64,000 bases of DNA from Vicugna vicugna (lineage: Eukaryota). How positions within the stretch are numbered: position 1 is the first letter of the stretch; every line of letters begins with the position of its first letter. The stretch covers positions 56,545 through 120,544 of the forward strand of contig MU057416.1 in the NCBI GenBank assembly GCA_013265495.1, given 5' to 3'. Positions 7,506 to 62,150 of the stretch are shown one piece after another. The notes under the pieces are model-generated. The model was given only the letters and a program-made list of their open reading frames with translations, searched no databases and was not told the origin of the DNA. The position numbers and the translations under genes are program-made.

Positions 7506-9740
7506 GACTTTTGTTTTTAAATAGGAAAGCACTTCAGATATTTTAAATATAGTTTCATAAAGTATCCTCGAAGGGTACACAAAAACGGTTAAAAATGACC
7601 ACTTTTATGAAATGGGACAAAGAATGGGGAGAAGACAGAGAAGACAGTAATTAGCACTCACTGGATTTAAAGCACAGACATAGCTATATTTTAAATTTAA
7701 CTTAATTGTAATAAATGCTATTATTTTAAAAGAACTTACATCCTCTGACTCTCCTTCAAAAATTTAAGTGCTTACAGGTTTCCATCTTTTCCTCATATAA
7801 TAATAATTTTGAATACCTGCTGATTCTTTTTTATTTTCTCCACTGGTGCTCCTACTTTCTTTTGAAGTATATTTGAGGTGGCAGCCAGAATGGAACCAAA
7901 ATGGTACATTTCTTGGATGGTGATTCAGTTGTGAGAATGTGTATAGATCTCTGTGCATTGATTCATACGTTCAGATCAGGTAGCATTTCACATACAACCC
8001 TTAGCGTGGGACAGTGGGGCTATCCAATCTTAATAGAAGAAATTATGACAGCCACTAAAAGTGGAACAAAAAAGGGTAGTAATAGAAAAAATGCCTTAAC
8101 AATATGTCATTTTCTATTCAGGATGGAAATGATACGATCTTGATTTTGAGGCTGTGGGTCTTCTGACCAAATTTTCTCAACTGAACGGAGAAAAAAAAAT
8201 CTAGCAAATTATTCTTCAAAACTTAACAGGACAAAAATACAGAAAATATGCATTTAAAGATGTATTTGTTTTCAAATGCATGATTTTTGTGGTGGCTGTT
8301 AATAAAAAATCTACTTTCCTTGAGAAACATCTTGCCTGTTTTAATTTTTGAATTTGACTAATTAAACATTTTTTCTTTTCAGTGATATTGAGATATTCAA
8401 AACAGCAGCATCTTAAAGGGCCAAGAATTGCTCCCCCCGCAAAAAAATAAAAAAGACCAATGTTTTATGGTGAAATTATGGCAAGTGCAGAGTATATGTA
8501 ACTGCAGTCTGAGGATGCCGCGGCCTTCCCGAAGGTAAAGAGCACTGCACTGTGTCAGCTCCGGCTGGGAGTTCGGCTCGTTCTCGGGGGTGATGTCATG
8601 GCAGCCAGCGAGGGCCTGGGAACGGAGAGGGGCGGGCAGGATGCTGCGGGGCAGGACTTGTGCTCCTTGCTGACCCTGTGAGTCAGTCCTCTGAGTCAGC
8701 GCATGACACGTAGACGTGGAATCCCATGAGCAAGGCTCGTGGAATGGACTCGGCCTGGGGGACATTCGTGGATGAGGGAGTTCTGCATCCTGAGTCGCTC
8801 AGGTTCTTACACTGAGCCCCCGCAGCTGCGTGTCAGCTGACCTCCCTGTGCCGTTTCTCCATCTGTGAAGGGAGGAGATCAAACTCCATCCATAGGACAT
8901 TTTCTGTTTTTGCCCTTTTGCAATTATGGGGAATCACAGTGGAAATCTGAAAGGTGACACCCAGGAGGAAAACCAAATAAAAACACTCGCAAAGTGCAAT
9001 GCCAGCAAGCCTCTGGGTTCTCGAAGTTTCACAAAAATATGAGTAACTATTGTTCCTAGCTGACTTCTTCTTCTCCTCCTAGTGGGGACGACGCAGTCAT
9101 GAAGTGAGAAGGTTTAAAGGGATTCGACCTGAGAGGAGCTCTGCCAACAGTGGGAGCCCAGACCATCGCAGTCTCCCTTTCACTCTCATAAATCTGACAT
9201 AGAGTGGTCCCGACTTGCAAAATTTCTCTTTCCTTTCAGTTTCTGCAGAAAAATGTAGACAGAAGAGCTAAACATGATCTGTCTGTAGATATTCATGATT
9301 GAAAATGGATGAAAGTAGTTTTAAATATCCAATCATTTAACCTGTTGGTTTTTAAAATAGTTCAAAATTTCCACAGAACTCAGTCAATATTTTAAATCCG
9401 TACAGGATTGCAGGGCATTGATTCTTATTGTGTGCTTTAAAATGTGCAATATTTTCTGTTCAATTTAGTGTTTCTACAGTCTTAGTGTCTGTGTTAGAGT
9501 GAAAACTGATATACATTATGCATGGAAGGCGTAAATATCCAAAGAGTTGACTATGGAACCAACAGCTAGCTTCTTCCATTATGATTCAAATCTAGTTTAC
9601 TTCAAAGTAAAATGCTTCAGAATAGAGCTCTTCTTACTTAAACTGCGAAGGTACTTATTCTTGTGGCAGAATTCTATGGGTGTAGAAATATTTCAGGAAA
9701 AAATAAAACAAGTTTTTCTTTTTAAAGGATAAAATGTAAC

Positions 9741-9831
9741 TTTTTTTTTTTAAAGTGGAGGGACTGGGGATTGAACCCAGGACCTTGTGCATGCTAAGCA
9801 TGTGCTCTACCACTGAGCTATACCCCACCCC
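9741..9831 (-). mobile_element. tRNA-derived SINE (Vic-1-like)
   Basis: Reverse complement is ggggtatagctcagtggtagagcacatgcttagcatgcacaaggtcctgggttcaatccccagt plus an A tail. Confidence 0.9.
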
Positions 9832-21777: not shown

Positions 21778-22588
21778 NNNNNNNNNNNNNNNNNNNNNNN
21801 NNNNNNNNNNNNNNNNNNNNNNNNNNNNNNNNNNNNNNNNNNNNNNNNNNNNNNNNNNNNNNNNNNNNNNNNNNNNNNNNNNNNNNNNNNNNNNNNNNNN
21901 NNNNNNNNNNNNNNNNNNNNNNNNNNNNNNNNNNNNNNNNNNNNNNNNNNNNNNNNNNNNNNNNNNNNNNNNNNNNNNNNNNNNNNNNNNNNNNNNNNNN
22001 NNNNNNNNNNNNNNNNNNNNNNNNNNNNNNNNNNNNNNNNNNNNNNNNNNNNNNNNNNNNNNNNNNNNNNNNNNNNNNNNNNNNNNNNNNNNNNNNNNNN
22101 NNNNNNNNNNNNNNNNNNNNNNNNNNNNNNNNNNNNNNNNNNNNNNNNNNNNNNNNNNNNNNNNNNNNNNNNNNNNNNNNNNNNNNNNNNNNNNNNNNNN
22201 NNNNNNNNNNNNNNNNNNNNNNNNNNNNNNNNNNNNNNNNNNNNNNNNNNNNNNNNNNNNNNNNNNNNNNNNNNNNNNNNNNNNNNNNNNNNNNNNNNNN
22301 NNNNNNNNNNNNNNNNNNNNNNNNNNNNNNNNNNNNNNNNNNNNNNNNNNNNNNNNNNNNNNNNNNNNNNNNNNNNNNNNNNNNNNNNNNNNNNNNNNNN
22401 NNNNNNNNNNNNNNNNNNNNNNNNNNNNNNNNNNNNNNNNNNNNNNNNNNNNNNNNNNNNNNNNNNNNNNNNNNNNNNNNNNNNNNNNNNNNNNNNNNNN
22501 NNNNNNNNNNNNNNNNNNNNNNNNNNNNNNNNNNNNNNNNNNNNNNNNNNNNNNNNNNNNNNNNNNNNNNNNNNNNNNNNNNNNNNNN
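21778..22588. other. Assembly gap (811 N), flanked by poly-T and (CCTT)n
   Basis: Run of N; simple repeats on both sides. Confidence 1.
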
Positions 22589-38830: not shown

Positions 38831-41309
38831 GGTGATCTTTTATACTGTGCGATACTCTGTGTTTAAGAATGGTCCTGGTTCATGTGCGTGCTGTTCACAT
38901 AGCAGGGGTGTCACTGATTTGAGGACACAGGGAACCCCACACACTCAAGGTGTAGTGCGTGTTGGACTGGAAGTGAGAACTTGGTCACTGGAGGTGGGAG
39001 TGAGGACCCGGAACTTGTCGACTGCAGAATAACCATGGCTGCTGTATTTCAGATCTCCAGTGTGTGACTTAATAGAGTTCAGGAGTCTTGGTTGAATAAA
39101 TGAATGAGTTGATTACTGTCACACGGGGTGTAAGATGTCCCAGTCATGTCATTGGTAAGTAGCTCCTTCAGGCCACTCTTTGAGGTGAGTGAAGGAACTC
39201 GCTGCATCTAAGTCCCCACGATGTCAGTGTCCACCAGCCCTGAGAGAGTGGACAGAGGAGAATGGGAAATGGGACCACCAGGCAGAGACCGCAGCAGCTC
39301 CGTTCCCTCCCGCTGGTGAAACAGAATCATAACATCTTCAGTGACCTTTGTGCTTAGATTCCCATCTTTAATTTTAATGCTTTTCTCCCAAGAATCTTGT
39401 TTTCTCTATGTCGAGGGCTACCGTAGCCACCTGGAGGAGAATTATCCCGGTGCAAGTGTTGAGCTGAAGGAAGCAGGGCAGGAGCTCTGCTCTCAGGTCT
39501 TGGCTGCTGAGTCCGGAGGGGGAACCAGATTATCTGCCCACCTGGGCCTGCTGCTGCAACCCGCCAGCGCTGAGAGAGGCCCACAGTGGCCTCCAGCACA
39601 TCCTGACAGTGGGGCGATGTGTCTCGTGTGGACCCCCAACACTGCCTGGCCGCCCTGTCACCCTCCCTAGCATAGCCATCTCCTCGCTTCCCAAAATGAC
39701 CGTTTTACCCCTTGTCTTGATTCGTCTCCCAGAATTTCTCAATCAGCCAATCATTTCCCTCCTGTTCTTCTAAAACCGTGGCAGTGAATCACACAGGAGC
39801 TTTCTCGTCTTCCTACCGCTGAGTCTGCCAGCGCACGTGTAAGTCAGTGCCACCGCCGTCTTCTCGTTTCAGACAAGAGTCCCTGGTTCTATCCAAGACC
39901 AACTCTCCTGCGTGTGATCAGAAGCCAGTGCTTCCTGACCCCCCAGGGACGTTGCTTCTGCAATCGTTTTCTTCTCTGCTGCATGGAAATATTTTCCTCT
40001 TTAGTGGAATTTCAGTCGACGTATGAATATGCTCTAACATGTCCTGTCCCAAACAAAAGATACACGTTCAGTACATGTCTGTCTCAAGCTGCAGCTCCGT
40101 GTCTCTGATGATGTTTACAGCTTAGGGTTCTCGGGAGCTGGTGTCTCTCCCTTTCTCATCACACTCATTCGCTCCGTGAACTCCTCCTCCCCCTGCCTGG
40201 ATCTAGTGTCACCATCTCTGACTTCTTTCACTGGAACTCCCAGCAGCGTTCCAGACAGACCACCCTGCTCTCCTTTTTGAAGGACACCTAGTAGGTGTAC
40301 CAGTTAGCGATTGCTTCCGAACACATCACACTCAAACTCGGTGGCTGGAAATGTCAAGTTACTGCTTCTCCTGAGTCTGTGGGTCTCCTGGGTGGTTTAT
40401 GCGGTCTCCTTTTGCCTCACTCAAGTGTGGCGGTCAAGTGCGGGTGGCGCAGCTCTGCAGATCTAGGCTGGATTCTTCCAGGCTGTGGGCTGGCTGGTTC
40501 TGGGATGGCCTCGGCTGCAGTATTTCAAAACTGGCAGCTTTGCAGAATGTGGCCAACTCTATTCTAGCTCAGTCCCTCCAGAAGGTAATAGGTTTCATTT
40601 ATTGGTGGCAATTCCTGACTTTGTGTGTGCTTGTGTGCTAATCTAGGGAAAGCATAATCTGAAACCTTTTTACTCCTCCGCATTTCTGTAAGCTGCATGG
40701 CTTCATTTTAAGGTGCCAGGGAGATGAGTGAAACCATGGTGGAGTCATTTCTCATCTTACAAAGGATCAAAACAAAAAATGAGCAGGGTTCAGAACATCC
40801 TTAGGGTACTCCATTTCTGTGTGAAGACCTGTGTGAGCAGAAAAAGCATTTTAGGATAAGTACATGTACAAAAAGTCAAGTTTTTTTGTGGCTAAGAAAG
40901 CTATCATAGATAAATGAGTTATCTCTGAAATACGGAAAACCTCTTTTTTTTTTAAATATGTAAATAAAGTGAACCGTAGCGGCTCTGCCATCTGTGTGAG
41001 GCTGAGAGTTCCTGGAAAATGACTCATTCAGTTCAGCAAAGACGTGAAACCAGATTTGAATGTAAAAAATACATGAGTTCCAGAGAACCTAGGATGCAAG
41101 GATTAGCACAGACACTTCCCAGTGCAGTGTTTGGAATAGAGGTGGGGTCATGGAAAAACGAGCAGACACCGTGGACGTGGACGGGAAGGCTCTTCAGTAG
41201 TGAGCACTGCTCTTTGAAATTGCTTTGATTTAGTTGCTGGAATTAACTGTCCAAGGCCTGTAGGGGTCATTTAGTTCAATGCCATTTTGTCTGTTAAGCC
41301 ACTGAAAAT

Positions 41310-43787: not shown

Positions 43788-44045
43788 CTATGTCACATCT
43801 CTTACTATAAACAGGAGCCATAGCAATGAGGTGGCATGTAGACACTGTTTATTGAACAACGGAGTGCTTGTGTAGTTGGTGACTCTGTAGTTCGAGTGGA
43901 TTTCCGGTTTCACATCACAGACGATGCTCAAAAGCTGGTTGATGACACTTTCCATGGACGTGCTGTGGCTCCCATCCAGCTCTTTTATCTTCCTCAGTGT
44001 CTGTGCTTCTATCTCTCTGGAGAGATTGCTCTGGGAGCCCATTGT
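43788..44045 (-). CDS. ATP6V1G3: ATP6V1G3 exon 3 coding part; orthologous stop position 43872-43874 is TAC, frame runs on to 43788
   Basis: Acceptor ttctgttctggtag|ACA ATG GGC TCC CAG. ORF 43788..44042 matches the G3 C-terminus up to NYRVTN and then continues for 28 extra residues. Confidence 0.93.
   Translation of the reverse strand, partial: TMGSQSNLSREIEAQTLRKIKELDGSHSTSMESVINQLLSIVCDVKPEIHSNYRVTNYTSTPLFNKQCLHATSLLWLLFIVRDVT
43848..43853 (-). terminator. Candidate polyadenylation signal AATAAA (another at 43452-43457)
   Basis: tttatt on the plus strand, ~20 nt past the orthologous stop position. Confidence 0.35.
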
Positions 44046-45236: not shown

Positions 45237-46348
45237 TTGTCGACTTGGTTCCATGATGATTCTAGACTCAGCGTAACTCATCTTTCTGGTTGTTCTGTCA
45301 TTGGCAGTGATTCTGGTCTTTCCTACTTCATCCTCTGTCTCTTAGCCTCCCTGTCAAGGAATGACAAGATTGAAATGCAATTTTACCAGGAGAGTTACCA
45401 ATTTAAAAGGATTCTTCAGTGAAACCCTCTGTGAAATTATCCACTGCTGAAGCCAACAGCCAGCTCCTAATTTATCTCCTTCGTAAACTCAGCCTTTCTT
45501 GAACAGGGCATCATTAGGTGACACAGCTGGTTTTTGTTTGTTTGTTTTTCTCTCCTGTGAGTGTTTAGGGAAGGTATGCATTTAATTTAATCCAAGAGGA
45601 CTCCACTAATGACTGATTTTTACTGCCAGGTTGTTAGACTGTTCTAAATCCTAGAATCCACAGGATCTTTCTGGGCCCTGAATTTGAAATAGAAAGCAGT
45701 TGAGGCTGTCCGGTTCCGGTTCTTTCCTGTTTACAGTCTGGGCAAGAGGGGCTTCCTAGTTCAAAGAAAATCATTTTGAGGAGATACAGCTTCTAAGACA
45801 TCAAATAGCTTTCATAAAATTACATTTTGGTAAGTATGCATGCAGGAACAACAGACATTTGGATAAAATTTCCCTTGCTACAAGGAAGTTTGAAAATAGA
45901 GAACTACTTACCAAAATAGTTCTACCAAAATCAGATTTTTCCTCTAAATCCAATATCTTAAGTGAGATTCTACCAAACTCAAAAATAAAATTACTTTTCC
46001 TAAATACAATGTCTTAAGTGGTGAAAAATTTAAAAGACAAACTGTTACGAAACGATTATCTATTTTTCTTAGGAGCAGTGTTAAAAATGGTTATTTTTAG
46101 GCTAGATTACTGCAGCTATCCTGAAGGACTTTGGAAAAGTTCATCTCAACCTTATGTTCTTTATTTTTTAAATACGGATAACATCAGAACATCACCCATT
46201 TGATGGGACTGCTGTAAAAAGTCAACCAGAGTCATGTGTGCAAAGTATGCAGAGTGGTGCTGCCCAATAGAATTGTAATATGAGCCACCAATGACCCATA
46301 TAAGTGACGTAAATTTTTCTATAGTATTAAAAAAGAAAAGAAAAAGAT

Positions 46349-46505
46349 GGAGGATATAGCTTAATGGTAGAGCATGTTCTTAGCATGCACAAGGTCCTGG
46401 GTTCCAACCCCAGTACCTCTGTTAAAAAAAAAAAACTAAGTAAATAACCTAATTATCCCCTCCACAAAAAACCCTAACTAACTAACTAAATAATTAAAAA
46501 AAAAA
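46349..46505 (+). mobile_element. tRNA-derived SINE (Vic-1-like)
   Basis: tatagcttaatggtagagc...gtcctgggttccaaccccagt, A-rich tail, aaaagat on both flanks. Confidence 0.88.
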
Positions 46506-47932
46506 GATAAGTGCCTCGAACACTGCTTGGCACATAGTAGGTGCTCAGTGCATCCCTGTTGAACAGAATAGAATGAGCTGCTCACCAGGCATCAGGGAGA
46601 ACTGATTACCTGTGTTCTACTGCTCTCGTCGGCCGAAGCCTGCTGCCTGAGTATTTGGGACACTATATAAATTAGAAGTCGATAATTATGTGACGTGGAA
46701 CTTGGTATGTTTGGCCGAAGGGTGCCGTTTGAGGACTTCTCCAGGCAAATTTCCCACCCTTCAGTGCTGCGGCCGCTGTGTGCAGCTTTGCAGAGTAATG
46801 ACTGATGGTGTTGGCGAAATCTTTCAGCGTTCAATAAGTTTCCTTGTAAGTTGTTCAAATGTTCCAATTTAAGGGAAACCAGAGGGTCAGGTCTCACACA
46901 GTCTTGCATTCTCAACTTGTGGTTGCTTCAAGGAAACAAAAATGCTTTCATGATAGGAATTTAGAAAGAAAGGAAAAAGACATTTTTTAGATCTTTTGTT
47001 CAGATTCGTGGTCCGTCTAACTTTTACTTGCATTAACAGTAGATACAACTTCCCACTGCAGTCCAGATCTCTTTTCGGCCAAGTACTGTTTTCTCCAGTA
47101 GAGGATGTTATTTTGCAGGACTTTCCGAGGTCCTGCAGGATGGCCGCAGGAGCTCCATCACCGCGGTTTTGTCTTTCTGAGAGAATCACAGAAACGGAGC
47201 CCTGCAGTGTGAACGGCCGCCTTCTTCCCTCAGCAGAGCTTCTTCTTAGAATCACCCCAGCTGTCACGTGTATCATTCGTTTGATCCTTCTTATTGCTGA
47301 GTGGTGCTGCAGTTTAGCAAGAGACAAAGTGAAATAAGGGATAAGTGTACAGCAGGAGATAGCAAAGTAAATCTTTGTTATAAAAATATTCCTTGATATA
47401 CAGCCCACCTTGGGATACTCACTTCTACTGATAAAGGAGGGGGGTGGAAAATGAGTCAGGGGGTGTGGAAAAAACATACATTAGCAAGAGCTAAGAAGCA
47501 CCCAAAAGAGTAGCATTGCGGGGCAGCAGCCACAGCAGGTGGGAAACTGGTTTCCCGGGGCTCCTCCGGGAGCTCCTCCGAGCCCCGGGTGAGCGCCCAC
47601 GAGCTCCGCGCGGGACAGCGGCGTGTGGCCCCCGCGGGCCGTGGCGGGAAGGCGCTGGGCTCACGCTTCACAATATGCTTGAAGCCGCAGAGGCCCGAAT
47701 GCGTTGACCTTCCTATGTGAGATTTTGATCAACTAGCTGTTAAATTGGCTTAGAGCTCTCATTCTGAGAGCGGTGAGGAGTTTTAATTATTCTCCAGCTC
47801 AGAGAATAAATACCATGAGCCAGACTTACATCTTATGAGATTCTTCATGAGACGTAATATTTCAAGAGATTAAACCCAACCACTTTCTAAAATTGTGGTC
47901 AGTTTTGTAATTATTTAAAAAAAATAATAATA

Positions 47933-48110
47933 TGGGGAGAAAGTATAGCTCAGTGGTAGAACACATGCTTAGCGTGCACAAGGTCCTGGGTTCAACCCCC
48001 AGTATTTCCATTAAAATAAGTAAGTGAATAAATAAACCTAATTACTTCTCCCCAAAACAAAAACAAAAAATAAATAAAATAAAATATTAAAAAGTATATT
48101 AATTAAAGAA
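47933..48110 (+). mobile_element. tRNA-derived SINE (Vic-1-like)
   Basis: gtatagctcagtggtagaacacatgcttagcgtgcacaaggtcctgggttcaacccccagt plus tail. Confidence 0.9.
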
Positions 48111-49332
48111 GAAGAATAATTCATATGTTAGAAATATCTTCTGCAGGATCAGAAAAGCTGATTGGTGTTAAGGGTGATTATTTTTTGGATCCTAATAAGT
48201 CATGGTTATGACAGGACTCAATAGGAAAGATAAAAGCATAGAAGAAATGTTGAGTTACTCATTCTTTCAATGAATACTTACTGTGTATTTACAATGGGGC
48301 AGTAACGTCTAGGAAAGCAACAGGGAACAAAATAAAGAACCTGCCATTTTGGTGCTTACAGTCCAGAAGGAAAGATAATCAATAAGCAAAAAATGTGAAT
48401 GTATAGTATATCCTGTAGTGATAAATGCTATGACTATAATTAGTACTTTCTTTTTTTATGAGAGACACAATCTTAGATAAGGTGATCGAGAACAAGAGCC
48501 AACAACTAACTGAACAGAGATCAAAGAGCAATGAATGTCTGTGAAAGAAGAGGATTCCTGGGAGTGGCTACAGCATATGCAAAGGCCCTGTGGCAGTGGC
48601 CTGTTCAGTTCACCTGGGGAAGAGCAGGGAGACACATGTGGCTAGAATAGAACAAGTAGAGACAAAGGGAGTAGAATATGTTACAAATGACCAAAGTAGA
48701 CATTGTTGCCAATTGCTGACAAGTCTTCTGGTATTTCCTTATGATTTTCTTTTCAACTAGCTGGCTCCACTCAATAAACCTTTCATACAAAATATAAAGA
48801 CATGCTGTTCCCTACACTAGCATTTAAAAAATATCTGCACTTTCAAAGGCAAGTGCATGACACTCAGAGCCCACAGGTCAGAGAGAGAGCCGAAGGGCAG
48901 TTGTGAGGGGCGTATGTGTTTGTGTGGACTGGGGAGTCTATGATTCCTTTTTCCAAATATCGATAAGAAGAATTTATTTTTGCTGAGTGGTCCACTTTAT
49001 TCTAAGGCCCTTTTGTTTCAAGAAACAGCCCGTTGGAAAAGTTTTTCCTATCGTGGGATCTCATTCACCTGATCTAACGCAAGCTCTGCATTGACTCCCA
49101 CTAAAATCAAAGCTGTAAACGGAGAGATTTACAAACTGCTTGCAGTTCATCTTGCCGTGTCAGGCTTCTGCACAGACCTTTATTTGTGTTTTTGCCAAAG
49201 AGAAAATACATCAACTTTAGTTATGGCGCATGGAATTTAATAATTCCTTTTAGTTCATGTTGCAAATCAGCTCTGAAAAATTCCTGCACTTATGTATTTT
49301 ACTGTAAACTGCAGATATTTTTTAAACGCTAA

Positions 49333-49463
49333 TGTATGAAAAAGCATTTCTTTACATTTTCATTAAAGATTGGTTGAAGGGAGCCAGCCAGTTGAAAAGG
49401 AAATCGTAACGGAATACCAGAAGCCTTTGCAGCAATTTGCAACAATATCGACTTTGATCATTT
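49333..49463. repeat. Intronic source copy of the 131-bp dispersed duplication
   Basis: Aligns without gaps to 50013-50143 (offset 680) with 4 mismatches. Confidence 0.97.
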
Positions 49464-49933
49464 ATAAATCTTGAATTAACCAAAGGAAATTTGGCCTAAC
49501 AAGCTCACTGTAGAACATTGTTCAACACTTTTTATTGATTCTACTAGTAAACATTAATAGACAAAAAAAAAGTTCTCTGTATTTTTTTCTTACTAAAATG
49601 TGTTAGTCAATCATCTGTAGTAGGAATAAAACTAACCAATTCCATCAACTTGTATATCTGAGAATATGATTTTTAACACATACGATGTATTAGATAAGAA
49701 CTATGGATTGACAGTCTCTATGACGAATGTGAAAACGTCAAATCGGTGATTCTGGGATGTTTCTGATTTGATTTGCGGTTCAGCCATGGTGAAGTCTATT
49801 TGCTCCATCCGATATGTTCTCTCCTGATATCCTGCGTCGGACCTTATGAAGATGAAGATCTCATCACTGTTCATGGATGTTAGTGTCTTACCATCTAAGC
49901 TGCTTGGAAATCGGTGCCAGCCGTCTCGCTCAC

Positions 49934-50157
49934 CTTAGCGTGTTTCAGCCGGAATGCCTGATCTCTCTGCATCCTGTACTGGTCAGTCTCTGCCATCGCT
50001 TCCTCCTTGGCCTGTATGAGAAAGCATTTCTTTACATTTTCATTAAAGACTGGTTGAAGGGAGCCATCCAGTTGAAAAGGAAATCGTAACGGAATACCAG
50101 AAGCCTTTGCAGCAATTTGCAACAATACCGACTTTGATCATTTTGGCTTGGCTTTTC
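49934..50157 (-). CDS. ATP6V1G3: ATP6V1G3 exon 2 (224 nt, disrupted by an insertion; ~101 nt expected)
   Basis: Acceptor tgttaattttcag|GA AAA GCC AAG CCA AAA TGA (stop at 50138-50140). Homology resumes at CAG GCC AAG GAG GAA GCG ATG (50014) and ends CAC GCT AAG|gtgag. Confidence 0.92.
50013..50143. repeat. Inserted copy of the 131-bp duplication inside ATP6V1G3 exon 2
   Basis: Direct repeat of 49333-49463, flanked on both sides by exon 2 coding sequence. Confidence 0.97.
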
Positions 50158-52454
50158 CTGAAAATTAACAGTGGCACAGAAAGGACAGATTTCTCTTCAG
50201 CATACAGAATTTCAAACTTGCTTTTTAGAAATACAGGTGAGGTCTACATGATTTTCAGATGCTCCACCCCCCCCCCCGCCTCAAATGATGCCCTTTGTTT
50301 AGAAACAAGCAATACTGAAAAATTCCTTGTTTTTTCAACTGGATTCTTTCGAACACGGAAATGACAACTTTCTTTTACACTCACATGTTTAAATGAAATA
50401 TCTTCCCGTTTACTATCACAGGAGTAACAGCCAGAGAGCAGATCTGAGCTGTCACTTACTCAGAAAGACATTATTTGGTCAGATCTGCTGTCCTGATTTG
50501 CTGCCAGGAATCCTTCAGTCCACACCAAATGAATCTGTTTAACGCTGGCAGACCTCCAACCGGCACTACAAACATGTGGCTCAGACTCTCTCAAACCAAC
50601 TTACAGTTTTTTAAAGCATTTTATTGGGGTGTTTTCCTTACCGTGTGTTGACTCTAGAATGTCTGATTAAGCCCCAAAGCACATCAAAGTAGACATTTTT
50701 TGTAGTCGCTTTCTCTGAGGGGGACTTGAAAGTGGTTGTAAAACCAACGGTTTTAATGGTTAGGAGATTTAGTTAAGTAGCTCTCTTTTCTTTTATTAAG
50801 AGCAAAGGTGTAAGCCTTAAGCCAGCAGATAGCACGGTAGATGAAAGTTTCAGAAAAATGTGAAAAACTGTGGAGATCATTAGGTAAGCACATGACTTTT
50901 TTGACAACCAGAGGAAGTATTGGGGGGGAGTGACAGAGTCATGTTAATCACTGCTCAGCCCTTACCACCCACCACCTTCGGGGAAGCTAGGTACTAACGC
51001 TCTGTGATCATTAAAACTTTAAAAAATCTCTGAACTGTATTGAAACTAATTTTCTTCAGAATCTATTGTCTTTCTATTTTAGTTAAATGCCTTGATTCAT
51101 TTGCCCGTTTAACATCATTTTTTTCTTCTGGTAAGATCTCTTAAGCTTTGGTTTATAATTTTTGTCAATGGTTTGTTGCACTATGTAGACTTGGAACTAA
51201 ATGTGTTTTCATTAAGTAGCATGAAAGAAAATCTTAACATAAACCTTATCTGTCATCTAGATACACAGGTTTACATGGCTTTGTTTTTGTGTAACTTTGT
51301 TGCATTTGAGCAGAGATGAGTCCTAAATTTCTCTTCCTGCTGCACAGAAGTTGCTTTGCGAGTCGCTGTATATGTGTGGACAAGAGACAGTCACTGTGTT
51401 ACACACTGAAATGTGTCTCTTTTAGTACCTCTTACCCTTGAGCGGGACTGAGCAGACGTCATTCACAACGCATATTTAGCTCTGTCTTAATTGTCCTTAG
51501 AATCCAAGGTCTAGTGAAAATGAGTGTTCTTCCAATGACTGAGCCTTAATGGAACGTTACCAGTAATGCTTTCCTTTTTCCTCCTCAATTCATGCTCGTT
51601 ACCATCTTGTATGTACACTTTTCTTCCTCTCTGGAGCTCTGACCACTTCCTGGCAACCACACACACGCCGTTCACAGGACAAACAAGCGAAATGTTGGCA
51701 AGGAAAACCATTCCTAGCCCCCAGCTCACTTTCTTATCCCTGCTTGTCACTAACATGAGGACAAAAATATATGTAAGAGGTGAGAAGATTTCTTAGTCGT
51801 AACGTGCTGTGGGTTACGTAACGAGTGGTCGGACACTATCTGATTGAGCAAAAAACCCCATAAAACATCATTACTTTCCATCTTAATTGCATATTGTGTA
51901 AAAGTACTTGTTTCCAAGTTGCAACTCGAGCACATTAAAAAAAACAACAACAACTAATAATAGGAAAAGCGCTGCGTGCCCGGCCCCTGCGCAGAAGCTG
52001 GCGCCCCTCTTCGGAGGCTGCGTGAGCTCCGAGTGCGCCTGCTTCCCCGGTGTGGCGCCGGTCACCTGCTGGTTCTCATTCAGTTAAACAGGGGAGCCAC
52101 GGGGACCTCGGGCGGCCCGCGGCGGGGAGGCGCAGGGCACCAGCCAGCCCGCATGGCCTGACCGCTGCTGGCTTCTGCGTCTGCGTGGGAACCTTCCAGA
52201 TTTTACAATTGCACCTCTTCCTTCTTTAAGCATTAAAAGCGTGGCTGCTGGGAACCCAAATGAGATCACGTTCCTATTTCTCAATACTTTCTCTCTCAAA
52301 CACAGGGGTGACCTTTTGGGACAGTCCAGATTTTAAATAGAACAGTCACATATTGGTCCCCAATTTCCTATAAGGTCACACGAGGCCAAATGTCCTGATT
52401 TTTGGTTTAGAAAATGAGACAACTCGTGCGTCATGATTTTATTACTTTAGAAAG

Positions 52455-52556
52455 TTTTTTGTTTGTTTGTTTTTTTAGCGGAGGTACTGGGGACTGAAGG
52501 CAGGACCTCGTGTAAGCTAAGCGCGCTCTCTACCACTGAGCCACACCCCCCCACCC
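52455..52556 (-). mobile_element. tRNA-derived SINE (Vic-1-like)
   Basis: gaggtactggggactgaagg...ctctaccactgagccacacccc with a T-rich tail. Confidence 0.85.
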
Positions 52557-59000: not shown

Positions 59001-59075
59001 TGTGACTTACTATTTTTTCTCTCTCTGTCTTTCTCTCCCTCCCTCCATTTCTCCCTTTTTAAAATATATTTCACA

Positions 59076-59232
59076 GGGGGAAGGGTCTAGTTCAGCAGCA
59101 GAGTGCATGCTTAGCGCGCAACAGGTCCTGGGTTCCATCCCCAGTAGTGCCATTAAGAAATAAATAAATGAATAAATAAACCTAATTACCTCCCCCTGCC
59201 AAAAAAAATTTGATTAATTAATTAAATTTTAC
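59076..59232 (+). mobile_element. tRNA-derived SINE (Vic-1-like)
   Basis: Diverged A box, gtcctgggttccatccccagt, and the shared aaacctaattacctcccc tail. Confidence 0.85.
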
Positions 59233-60208
59233 AAATACACTCACAAGCCTTGCTCTAGCAGGGTAAGTTCTGAAAGTCTTGTAAATAAACGGATTTAGGA
59301 AGAAGATGGTGAAGCTAAGCCTGCAAGTGTGTTGCTGCTGTGATCGATTAGTTGCCGTTCTGAGTCTCTGTTCTGCCTCTGTGTCAGATTTTCAAATGAA
59401 TCTCTTTTTGGAAAAAAGGCGAGTAAATCTATGGGTTTACAAAGATGACGGCTCTCTGTACCTCGCATGGCATTTCCACATCTGTCTCGTGGGGGAGTCT
59501 TCTGAGGAAGGTCTTCTCATCAGTGAATATACCAGAGCAGCCTGAAAATCACTGGCACCCAACAAGTACTTACTGAATTAAACACATAAATAAAATTAAA
59601 AAAAATAGTGAAATAGCAGAAAAGCTACGAAATAGCAGGTACACAAGGCAGCATTGCACTTGGCCGCGGCGAGCTGAAGAAGCGAGTGACGGGCACGGGC
59701 CCCGGAGCTGTCACCTAGCCGCCCCTGCGTGTGGCGTCTGGGCAGGGAACGGCCCCCGTCTGTCCGGTGAAAACGGCCCCCGAGCCCGTGCTCCCCGAGG
59801 CCAAGGACGGGCTTCCTCTGAGAAAGTGAGCGCAGAGCTCACTGGTTGAAACAACAGTTGGAAAGATATTTTCCAAAATATTTTTAAGGCCAGGGTATTT
59901 ACTATTACTGGTTGATATTTGTTCAAAGATTTATGAACAAAGACCAAGAAAAAAAAGTACATAAGTATTTTAAGTGACTGGTCAACAAAATGAACATTGT
60001 GTATACAAATAATACAGTATGGACCTTCCGGTACTGACTTCCGAGGAGAGATTGCCCGAACACAGCATACTGACCAAGGGGAGGGAAAAATAGCCTGTCT
60101 TCTACCTTTCCTGTGAAAGCTGAGGTTAGATTGTTCTGAGAGGTTCCCACCTCCAAATGACTTGCCTGATTCCCAGTGCCTCTCTAATGACTGAGGAATG
60201 AGAGATAA

Positions 60209-60351
60209 GGGGGAAGGGTGGGGTATAGCTCAGTGGTAGAGCAGGTGCTTAGCATGCAGTAGGTCCTGGGTTCAATCCCCAGTCCCTCCATTAAAAAAAT
60301 AAATAAGTAAATACATCTAATTACCTCCCTCCCCCTCAAAAATTAAAGAAA
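60209..60351 (+). mobile_element. tRNA-derived SINE (Vic-1-like) with TSD
   Basis: Full A/B boxes; TSD aatgagagata at 60197-60207 and 60352-60362. Confidence 0.92.
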
Positions 60352-62068
60352 AATGAGAGATAGGTGGTAAGTATCATTTGGATCAAATGACAATATTGAC
60401 TATGTGCTCAATATTGTCATTTTGTTTCTTCCATCTTGAGGAAGGAATGGTAACATAATGACCACATCTTAAAATAAACTGATCTTCTGTTCTGGACATT
60501 TTAAATATAGAAAAGAAATTTGAATAAAAGATAAGGGAGTTTTCTACACTGTTTCAACCAGCAGGTCCTGGGCTGCTTTGTTTTCTCAGCAGTTACTCTG
60601 TGTTCATCCCATTTGGCCATCATTTGCATGGTTTGTTGTAGCGAAAAAAAAAATGGAGAAGTTGGTCAAGTTTGCCTTCGTTAGCTTGAGCCTTCCCTTT
60701 CCCTTCCAGCACCTCCACGTGGACTCTTTTTCTTTTGTGCTTTGGTGCCCACATTGCTGAGTGTTCAGGAAATCAACTGATCTTAAGAAAGGAAAATGAC
60801 TTTATATGTGATTGAAAACCCCAGGGGACTGAGTAGTGAGTGTCTGCCTTGCCTTCCTTTCTTACACTATCACGTCCTGTGCCCACGTTACATTCAATGC
60901 ATTGAAACAAGCTTCTGTCAATACCGACTCTGTTCTGATCTCTTCACGCAGCCAAAGTCTTACACAAGCAACGCTTTAAGACGTGATCCCTGTCTGGCAG
61001 GGCTTGGAATCTAATTGCAGAGACAGGACATGTAATTAGGAAGGTAAATGACACACCATGTTGGAGATTAAGTAAGGATGTGAGTGAAATGGGACAGTGG
61101 GGGAAACAGAGGTCTTGGCCCCCAGGGACCAGAATTTGGGGTGTAGATCTGTGACATTCGTTTATTCGTTATGAAAATCACGTACATTTTGTACAGTGCC
61201 TTGTTTAGATTGTGGCTGGGGGATCAGACCCCACCAAACCCTGTCTCTACCATTAACCTCTGTGTGATCTTGAGCAAGTTGCATCATTTCTCTAAGCTCA
61301 CTTTCCCCTTTTTGCAAAGAGGGTTGGTGTGAAGAGTAAATAAGATAAGGAGTAAGTAAGTAAACAAGATGAGCATGGGCCTGGCACCCTATTTTCTGCT
61401 TTTTAAAATATGGCTGTCGGCAAACTATAGACTCTCAATTTCTGCATAAGTGAAATGGAAATGTAGTTATTATGCCTAATCCGTGTGGTTGCTGTGAATG
61501 TCAAAGAAACATTCTCTGGGTAAGCACGTAGATGAATGACCAAATAACAAGAAATCAGAAAGTGAGAATAAAATGGAAATATTTTTAAAGGTTGGACATT
61601 AAAAACCATCAAGAAAGGGAGAACAAATGTAACTTTGTCACAATGTGCAGAACAGAAACCGATGCCTACAGAGGCTAAGACACTTGCCCAAGCTCGCTCA
61701 CTAGTCCGTCACTTCGGTCTGGAAGTGGCCTGTCCTTTCTTAACCATTCTGCAACATTGAGACACCGAGGCGTGGCGGCTTTAGGGAAGTTGGAGGCAAA
61801 GCTCAAGCCCGAGTCTCTGCAACTTCAGCGTCCATCATCATTTCCCACGGAGCGCGATGTGGCCAAAAGATCTGAGCTGGGGAAATTCATCCCCACTCTA
61901 GTGATGGGAGACATGCAACTGGGAAGCTTTAGTGAGCTGGCCACGGTCTCCCCGAGAGCGTGGCGGAACCAGGGAGTAACCTGTTCGAGAGGTCCGCGCT
62001 CCTCCTCCTGCACGCCCCTCATCCGTTTTGTGACCAGTCCCTCACAGGGCAGACAGGAGGGGGCTTAC

Positions 62069-62150
62069 TCCTTTTGGCTTCCTCGAGCTTGTCCTTGGCC
62101 CTTTTCTCTGCCTGGAGGAGCTGGTGGATCCCCTGGGACTGGCTGGCCGT
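62069..62150 (-). CDS. ATP6V1G3: ATP6V1G3 coding exon 1 (82 nt, starts ACG instead of ATG)
   Basis: Minus strand reads gccggccaccACG GCC AGC CAG TCC CAG GGG ATC CAC CAG ... GCC AAA AGG A|gtaagc: 27 codons plus 1 nt, phase-1 donor. Confidence 0.95.

Follow-up and report, generated by a model that had tools for sequence, protein, structure and literature searches.

Exon 2 of ATP6V1G3 in the Vicugna vicugna DNA analysed here carries a nearly exact copy of 131 nucleotides of intron 2 of the same gene, placed in the same orientation. We favour, at a probability of roughly two in three (about 0.68), the reading that a break in exon 2 was repaired with a patch copied from intron 2, and that this took place in the New World camelid (Lamini) lineage after the split from Camelus. 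As a mutation the insertion is of an ordinary type, one more break-repair patch. It can be resolved cleanly because the donor and the copy share one window (the whole stretch of DNA analysed, 64,000 nucleotides long) and because the state before the insertion survives in Camelus proteins. The two copies are located as follows.

50013..50143, minus strand: the inserted 131-nt copy in exon 2 of ATP6V1G3, identical to 49333-49463 at 127 of 131 positions.
49333..49463, minus strand: the source segment in intron 2, which makes up the outer 131 nt of a palindrome's right arm, as established by repeat search and copy comparison.

Both a repeat search and a self-blastn comparison of the window recover this pair as a gap-free direct repeat, with an offset of 680 nt between the starts of the copies. 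The copies differ at four positions (49340/50020, 49370/50050, 49387/50067 and 49448/50128). The origin of a 131-nt match of 97% identity by chance within 64 kb is far outside expectation. A search with nhmmer found three copies of the 131-mer in the 64-kb window, all at this locus, with none beyond the direct pair and one inverted arm. The first-pass annotation had proposed a 131-bp same-orientation repeat and had listed its mismatches; the repeat is borne out by both searches, and all four mismatch positions prove exact in the alignment of the copies. Its description of the source as unique intron sequence is wrong, as a second, inverted version with about 82% identity occupies 48681-48843.

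The host gene encodes subunit G3 of the V-ATPase, a kidney-enriched isoform, and lies on the minus strand, where G3 proteins map to three coding exons by tblastn. A minus-strand frame over 49895-50137 matches Pfam family PF03179 (V-ATPase subunit G) with an E-value of 1.2e-5 and a score of 26.2 bits, which is below the curated cut-off of 28.6 bits. The nearest proteins in protein searches are G3-named proteins of Camelus, Vicugna, whales and ruminants, with those of camelids closest. A protein search with the 80-residue frame that spans the insert junction gave one candidate and no matches, and a metagenome scan for G3 relatives gave 173 pattern matches, none of which was confirmed. The coding exons, together with a stop codon at the start of the insert, are these.

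62069..62150, minus strand: coding part of ATP6V1G3 exon 1, with ACG at the start position (62150-62148) in the context gccaccACGg.
49934..50157, minus strand: ATP6V1G3 exon 2, 224 nt compared with an expected ~101 nt, reading R-K-A-K-P-K-stop.
50138..50140, minus strand: in-frame TGA created where the insert begins, read in the phase that exon 1 imposes.
43875..44045, minus strand: coding part of ATP6V1G3 exon 3, with TAC (43874-43872) at the former stop and a frame that continues to TAG at 43790-43788.

Canonical splice sites are present at all four positions, and exons 1 and 3 keep their reading frames intact. Three splice variants of human ATP6V1G3 have been named (PMC2835735). Several other elements were observed in the window. 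A short interspersed repeat recurs several times in and around the ATP6V1G3 introns, with a likeness of 74-92% between copies (46315-46500, 47903-48093, 52463-52552, 59075-59227, 60208-60354 and 9739-9830); their translations suggest that they are tRNA-derived SINEs, which are typical of the group. Two G+C-rich stretches with long open frames on both strands, one in intron 2 (47460-47730) and one in intron 1 (51960-52230), may be CpG-island-like elements. The sole assembly gap in the window, a run of 811 N at 21778-22588, is far from the insert.

The size of exon 2 corresponds to 101 + 123 nt, between an acceptor that ends in cag and a donor that begins with gtgagc. Compared with the Camelus sequence KAKRLRQAK, the window is without the R-L-R codons, and 6-8 nt would have been lost, as judged from the Camelus protein. 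These codons are replaced by CA and the 131-nt copy, whose final CA overlaps the CAG codon of Gln, for a net gain of 123 nt. At this junction (50012/50013) there is a 2-nt CA/TG overlap, for which the ancestral state is taken from Camelus proteins only. At the other junction, with the ancestral state drawn from the same proteins, there is either no overlap and two filler bases or an overlap of 1 nt. On the coding strand, the extra CA (50145-50144) that precedes the inserted copy is either filler or the terminal CA of the palindrome.

No target-site duplication, poly-A or A-tract was found at the insert. The hexamer GCCAAG flanks the insert on either side, and it represents the ancestral KAK...QAK repeat that is present in Camelus too. 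A candidate 9-nt target-site duplication (CAAGCCAAA / CAGGCCAAG) was rejected as this same ancestral repeat, whose removal would break the frame. An apparent extra-A frameshift at the start of exon 2 was also dismissed once the phase of exon 1 was applied. Much of what had been described earlier for this exon holds: the placement of the insertion in exon 2 against an expected length of ~101 nt, the replacement of about 6 coding nucleotides (here a deletion of 6-8 nt relative to the Camelus protein) and the 2-nt CA/TG overlap at one junction were all recovered. The accompanying statement that there is no target-site duplication, poly-A or transposon signature stands for its first two parts; the third is not supported, since the source belongs to a palindrome that looks like a transposon and the copy stops where the arm has its outer end.

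This palindrome spans ~780 bp of intron 2, with arms of ~160 nt, a centre of 462 nt, and a TA dinucleotide beyond the outer end of each arm.

49306..49467, no strand assigned: right arm of the palindrome, with weaker similarity extending to about 49291.
48681..48843, no strand assigned: left arm of the palindrome, inverted relative to the right arm and ~82% identical to it.
48685..49463, no strand assigned: predicted long DNA hairpin, whose outermost pair is 48685/49463.

When folded as single-stranded DNA, the region 48660-49490 is predicted to form one long hairpin of -140.4 kcal/mol, compared with -88.4 +/- 7.0 kcal/mol for 20 shuffled sequences (z = -7.4). Position 49463 is both the last base of the copied segment and the outermost base of the predicted hairpin stem, and for this reason the copied piece corresponds exactly to the outer 131 nt of the right arm. 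By a rough estimate made without a formal test, an endpoint would land within a few bases of the palindrome boundary by chance in a few per cent of cases. This coincidence at the foot of the hairpin suggests that the palindrome was involved in the insertion. The palindrome at 48681-49467 resembles a miniature element of the Tc1/mariner type. A conserved motif of the arms had no matches in a metagenome scan, which is uninformative on the repeat family. The arms differ by ~18%, whereas the direct copies differ by 3%, and the exon copy was therefore taken from this arm or a near-identical one rather than from an old independent member of a family.

The distribution of the insertion among camelids was assessed from annotated proteins. 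Two records of Camelus dromedarius (XP_031294134.1 and KAB1258690.1) and one of C. ferus (P0013) have an uninterrupted exon 2 that reads ...RRKAKRLRQAKEEVMAETDQ..., and the normal exon 2 of these three Camelus records spans ...RRKAKRLRQAKEEVMAETDQYRMQRDQAFWLKHAK... The annotated alpaca protein P0014 reads ...KCFLIQAKEEAMAETDQ... and is identical at 32 of 32 residues to the translation of window positions 50029-49934. These residues include the following segment.

50012..50029, minus strand: KCFLIQ of alpaca P0014, encoded by the terminal 17 nt of the insert and by the opening base of the exon.

The presence of KCFLIQ in P0014 means that the junction between insert and exon exists in the alpaca assembly annotated by NCBI. 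This assembly may be the same as the source of the window, in which case it is not independent. The alpaca gene model implies the use of a putative cryptic acceptor inside the insert (taaag/AAATGC, 50029/50030). All aligned exon 2 and exon 3 residues of P0014 match the window, as do all but the first of 39 aligned residues of exon 1. The same model takes in two tiny pieces, KTG (~60101) and TGSGA (~59789), and an extra downstream exon (..DTDIVGT, 39214-39231, minus strand); canonical splice sites for the two micro-exons were not found near 60101 or 59789. Because Camelus proteins retain exon 2 and the alpaca protein carries residues encoded by the insert, the insertion is, on the evidence of annotated proteins, confined to New World camelids. 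A comparison of Old World with New World camelids had been suggested in the first-pass annotation, and its outcome is absence from Camelus proteins and presence in alpaca P0014.

The inverted arm gives polarity to the four mismatches. At each of the four variable sites this arm sides with the intron copy, and overall it is identical to the intron copy at 107 of 131 positions and to the exon copy at 103 of 131. By parsimony, all four changes would thus lie on the exon copy; if both copies changed at equal rates, the one-sided probability of a 4:0 split is 1/16. Read in frame, the window and dromedary differ at 10 of 197 codons, which converts to roughly 2% nucleotide divergence, and the direct copies differ by 3% although the insert postdates the split from Camelus. 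The 4:0 polarity and the 3% divergence between copies, set against ~2% divergence from dromedary, suggest that some of the mismatches arose during copying, with the numbers being small. These mismatches had been proposed as a clock for dating the inactivation of the gene. They make a poor clock, because all four are derived in the exon copy, where they could be copying errors, and because the gene was probably not inactivated by the insert.

This last point follows from lesions that are shared more widely than the insert. The Met1 position is Thr in the dromedary, C. ferus and alpaca proteins, and is Met in all 68 other 118-residue G proteins. Beyond the lost stop codon, the read-through tail is whole in both Camelus proteins, and the alpaca model has its first two residues only. 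Two substitutions are found in all camelids, E54A (acidic in 65 of 68 others) and Q59H (Q in 63 of 68 others). The changes K19N, A40V, R56W and K80N occur in Camelus only, and the residue replaced is the one present in 63, 67, 59 and 53 of the 68 others, respectively. Y88H occurs only in the window and alpaca, and the residue is Y in 62 of 68 others. When the window is compared with dromedary in the same frame, 6 of 111 coding codons differ versus 4 of 86 in flanking non-coding sequence, where the counts are small and include no synonymous sites. Although these counts are small, the pattern, with coding and flanking sequence differing to a similar extent, may point to relaxed constraint also in the lineage that lacks the insert.

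Camelus is without the insert but has the same ATG-to-ACG change and the same lost stop codon, so that the insert probably came as a secondary lesion and was not the original knock-out. ATP6V1G3 was very probably decaying already when the insert arrived, as judged from the sequences compared. The proposal that exon 2 had been knocked out by the insertion is therefore doubtful, given that Met1 to Thr and the loss of the stop are older. Translation can begin at an ACG codon when the initiation context is strong, and for this reason the gene may still have been working before the insertion. NCBI models proteins from the ATP6V1G3 locus in three camelids despite the lesions.

We consider ATP6V1G3 to be a candidate unitary pseudogene whose disabling lesions are ACG at Met1, TGA in exon 2 and the change of the stop to TAC. 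It is like unitary pseudogenes of tissue-specific paralogues (here with the paralogues G1 and G2) in having a lost start, a premature stop, a lost stop and changes at conserved residues. It differs from them in its intact splice sites, in the intact frames of exons 1 and 3 and in having NCBI protein models. In the literature searched, no paper was found that treats ATP6V1G3 together with camelids, and among the listed papers that pair ATP6V1G3 with "pseudogene", none is about camelids by its title and abstract. The supplements to PMC12127551 include ATP6V1G1 but not ATP6V1G3 among one-to-one genes, which is no explicit statement on its loss.

The structure of the insertion was compared with those produced by known repair and replication pathways. 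Class 2 templated sequence insertions, or TSIPs (Onozawa and Aplan), are described in passages of PMC5110952 as having a microdeletion, microhomology, filler bases and no target-site duplication or poly-A. The ATP6V1G3 insertion resembles these in patching a presumed break, in its microdeletion, microhomology and possible filler, in lacking a target-site duplication and poly-A, and in being fixed in the germline. It differs in its donor: class 2 donors, in the same passages, are distant and are argued to be RNA-derived, whereas the donor here belongs to the same gene, at a distance of 550-680 bp, and is one arm of a palindrome. Polymerase-theta end joining, as outlined in sections of PMC4490562, yields deletions of ~7-13 bp with single-nucleotide homology and, now and then, an insert templated by sequence near the break. 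The likeness to this pathway (PMC4490562 and PMC7165422, in part) extends to a deletion of 6-8 nt compared with 7-13 bp, to a possible 1-2 nt of homology and to an insert identical to nearby sequence. However, the inserts characterised in those sections of PMC4490562 are short and break-proximal, and 131 nt from more than 500 bp away goes beyond that description.

Replicative template switching (MMBIR/FoSTeS) provides a third point of comparison. As portrayed in portions of PMC8421209 and PMC7954356, a polymerase leaves its template to copy sequence close by before going back, with microhomology where it switches, and secondary structure or inverted repeats are often invoked; these features are shared by the insertion. 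The detection tool presented in portions of PMC8421209 takes only inverted copies of at least 10 bp templated within 100 bp. The template switches searched for there are thus inverted and within 100 bp, whereas the present copy is direct and at 550-680 bp. Because 131 nt and 550-680 bp exceed the inserts described in the relevant passages of PMC5110952 and PMC4490562 and the search range of PMC8421209, no single pathway was chosen. We commit to no more than the repair of a break or a stalled fork with a patch of local origin. Within this reading, the sequence does not separate polymerase theta from replicative template switching, from fragment capture or from an RNA-derived patch, all of which would be sub-variants. 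The first-pass annotation had put forward a locally templated insertion from break repair, and the local same-orientation copy, the microdeletion and the 2-nt overlap uphold this; its more specific designation as polymerase theta-type is not upheld, as the insert is much longer and the template much farther away than the parts of PMC8421209 and PMC4490562 concerned describe.

Three other explanations were weighed against a patch copied from local DNA. Among these, an RNA-derived patch is rather unlikely. Such a patch would be an intron piece of the pre-mRNA, itself a long double-stranded hairpin, that was reverse-transcribed into the break, in the manner of the class 2 insertions known from human genomes. 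The orientation of the insert is indeed that of the transcript, and the lack of a target-site duplication and poly-A, the microdeletion, the microhomology and the possible filler fit class 2 as given in passages of PMC5110952. All four mismatches are on the insert, as error-prone reverse transcription would give, and two of the four run from A to G on the transcribed strand, as expected of double-stranded RNA editing. However, the remaining two are not A-to-G on that strand, and an RNA-editing signature was rejected with only two of four fitting. Furthermore, the patches of PMC5110952, in the passages concerned, come from distant regions, and a donor 550 bp away favours a DNA template in cis; RNA and DNA templates are otherwise indistinguishable from sequence.

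Quite unlikely is an origin linked to transposition, in which a terminal fragment of 131-134 nt from a Tc1/mariner-like palindromic element arrived by independent insertion or by an aberrant one-ended local hop. The inverted arms of ~160 nt with TA on the outer side of each would suit such an element, and the exon copy stops 0-4 nt from the outer end of the arm, as expected for a transposon end. In addition, the CA before the copy, with one extra A, matches the terminal CA of the left arm. A cut-and-paste Tc1/mariner-like MITE is nevertheless expected to bring both terminal inverted repeats, whereas the exon holds only the outer 131 nt of one arm and the second end is missing. A TA or other duplication is absent from the exon site, where the flanks read GC/CA... 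and ...CA/GG on the coding strand, and there is a deletion of 6-8 nt instead. The arms are 18% apart versus 3% for the copies, so the element looks far older than the insertion, unless the arms were never alike. The 64-kb window contains no additional copies, and recent cut-and-paste activity is not known in camelids, which likewise speaks against a transposon. LINE-1-mediated insertion differs as well, in that a target-site duplication of at least 5 bp, a poly-A tail and a TTTT/A target are all absent at 50008-50150.

An artefact of assembly or polishing, under which the exon copy would be absent from the animal, is very improbable. The four mismatches between the copies, and an insert coupled to a precise small deletion, are evidence against it. 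There is no gap nearby, with the sole run of N at 21778-22588, and the NCBI alpaca protein encodes residues across the junction between insert and exon, possibly from the same assembly as the window. Fourteen sequencing runs from two organisms and six studies contain 0.91-0.93 of sampled words from the surrounding 10 kb; these values are not specific to the junction, and no support was drawn from them. Two RNA runs contain 0.33 of sampled words from the same 10 kb, from which no conclusion on expression was drawn.

Repair of a break with a local patch remains our preferred reading, and its steps can be proposed as follows. A DNA break, which we infer from its apparent repair, would have occurred in exon 2 of ATP6V1G3 on the Lamini lineage. 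Intron 2, 550-680 bp downstream, would then have supplied the template for a patch of ~131 nt, and 6-8 coding bases within the R-L-R codons would have been lost during the repair. One side would have been joined via the 2-nt CA/TG overlap, and the other via two filler bases or a 1-nt overlap. The palindrome may have served as a site of stalling or cleavage, or as an exposed junction of single strand and duplex where copying started or stopped. The product would have been an immediate in-frame TGA in a gene that was very probably decaying beforehand. Both the enzymatic pathway and the role of the hairpin in this scheme are putative.

A more specific version of this scheme, which we regard as possible and hold only tentatively, would have a hairpin or cruciform that was cut, or that caused stalling, at its foot, such that a second lesion, 550 bp away in exon 2, received the outer 131 nt of the arm through error-prone copying or through capture. 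This version also takes ATP6V1G3 to be non-functional in all camelids. This reading, a hairpin-anchored repair event in a mammalian germline together with camelid-wide loss of G3 function, was not found in any paper in the literature searched. If patches that end at the feet of palindromes recur elsewhere, structure-forming repeats would be tied to locally templated insertions in the germline. ATP6V1G3 appears compromised in every camelid examined, with start and stop codons lost, and this would represent a family-wide loss or remodelling of a V-ATPase isoform in animals of unusual renal physiology.
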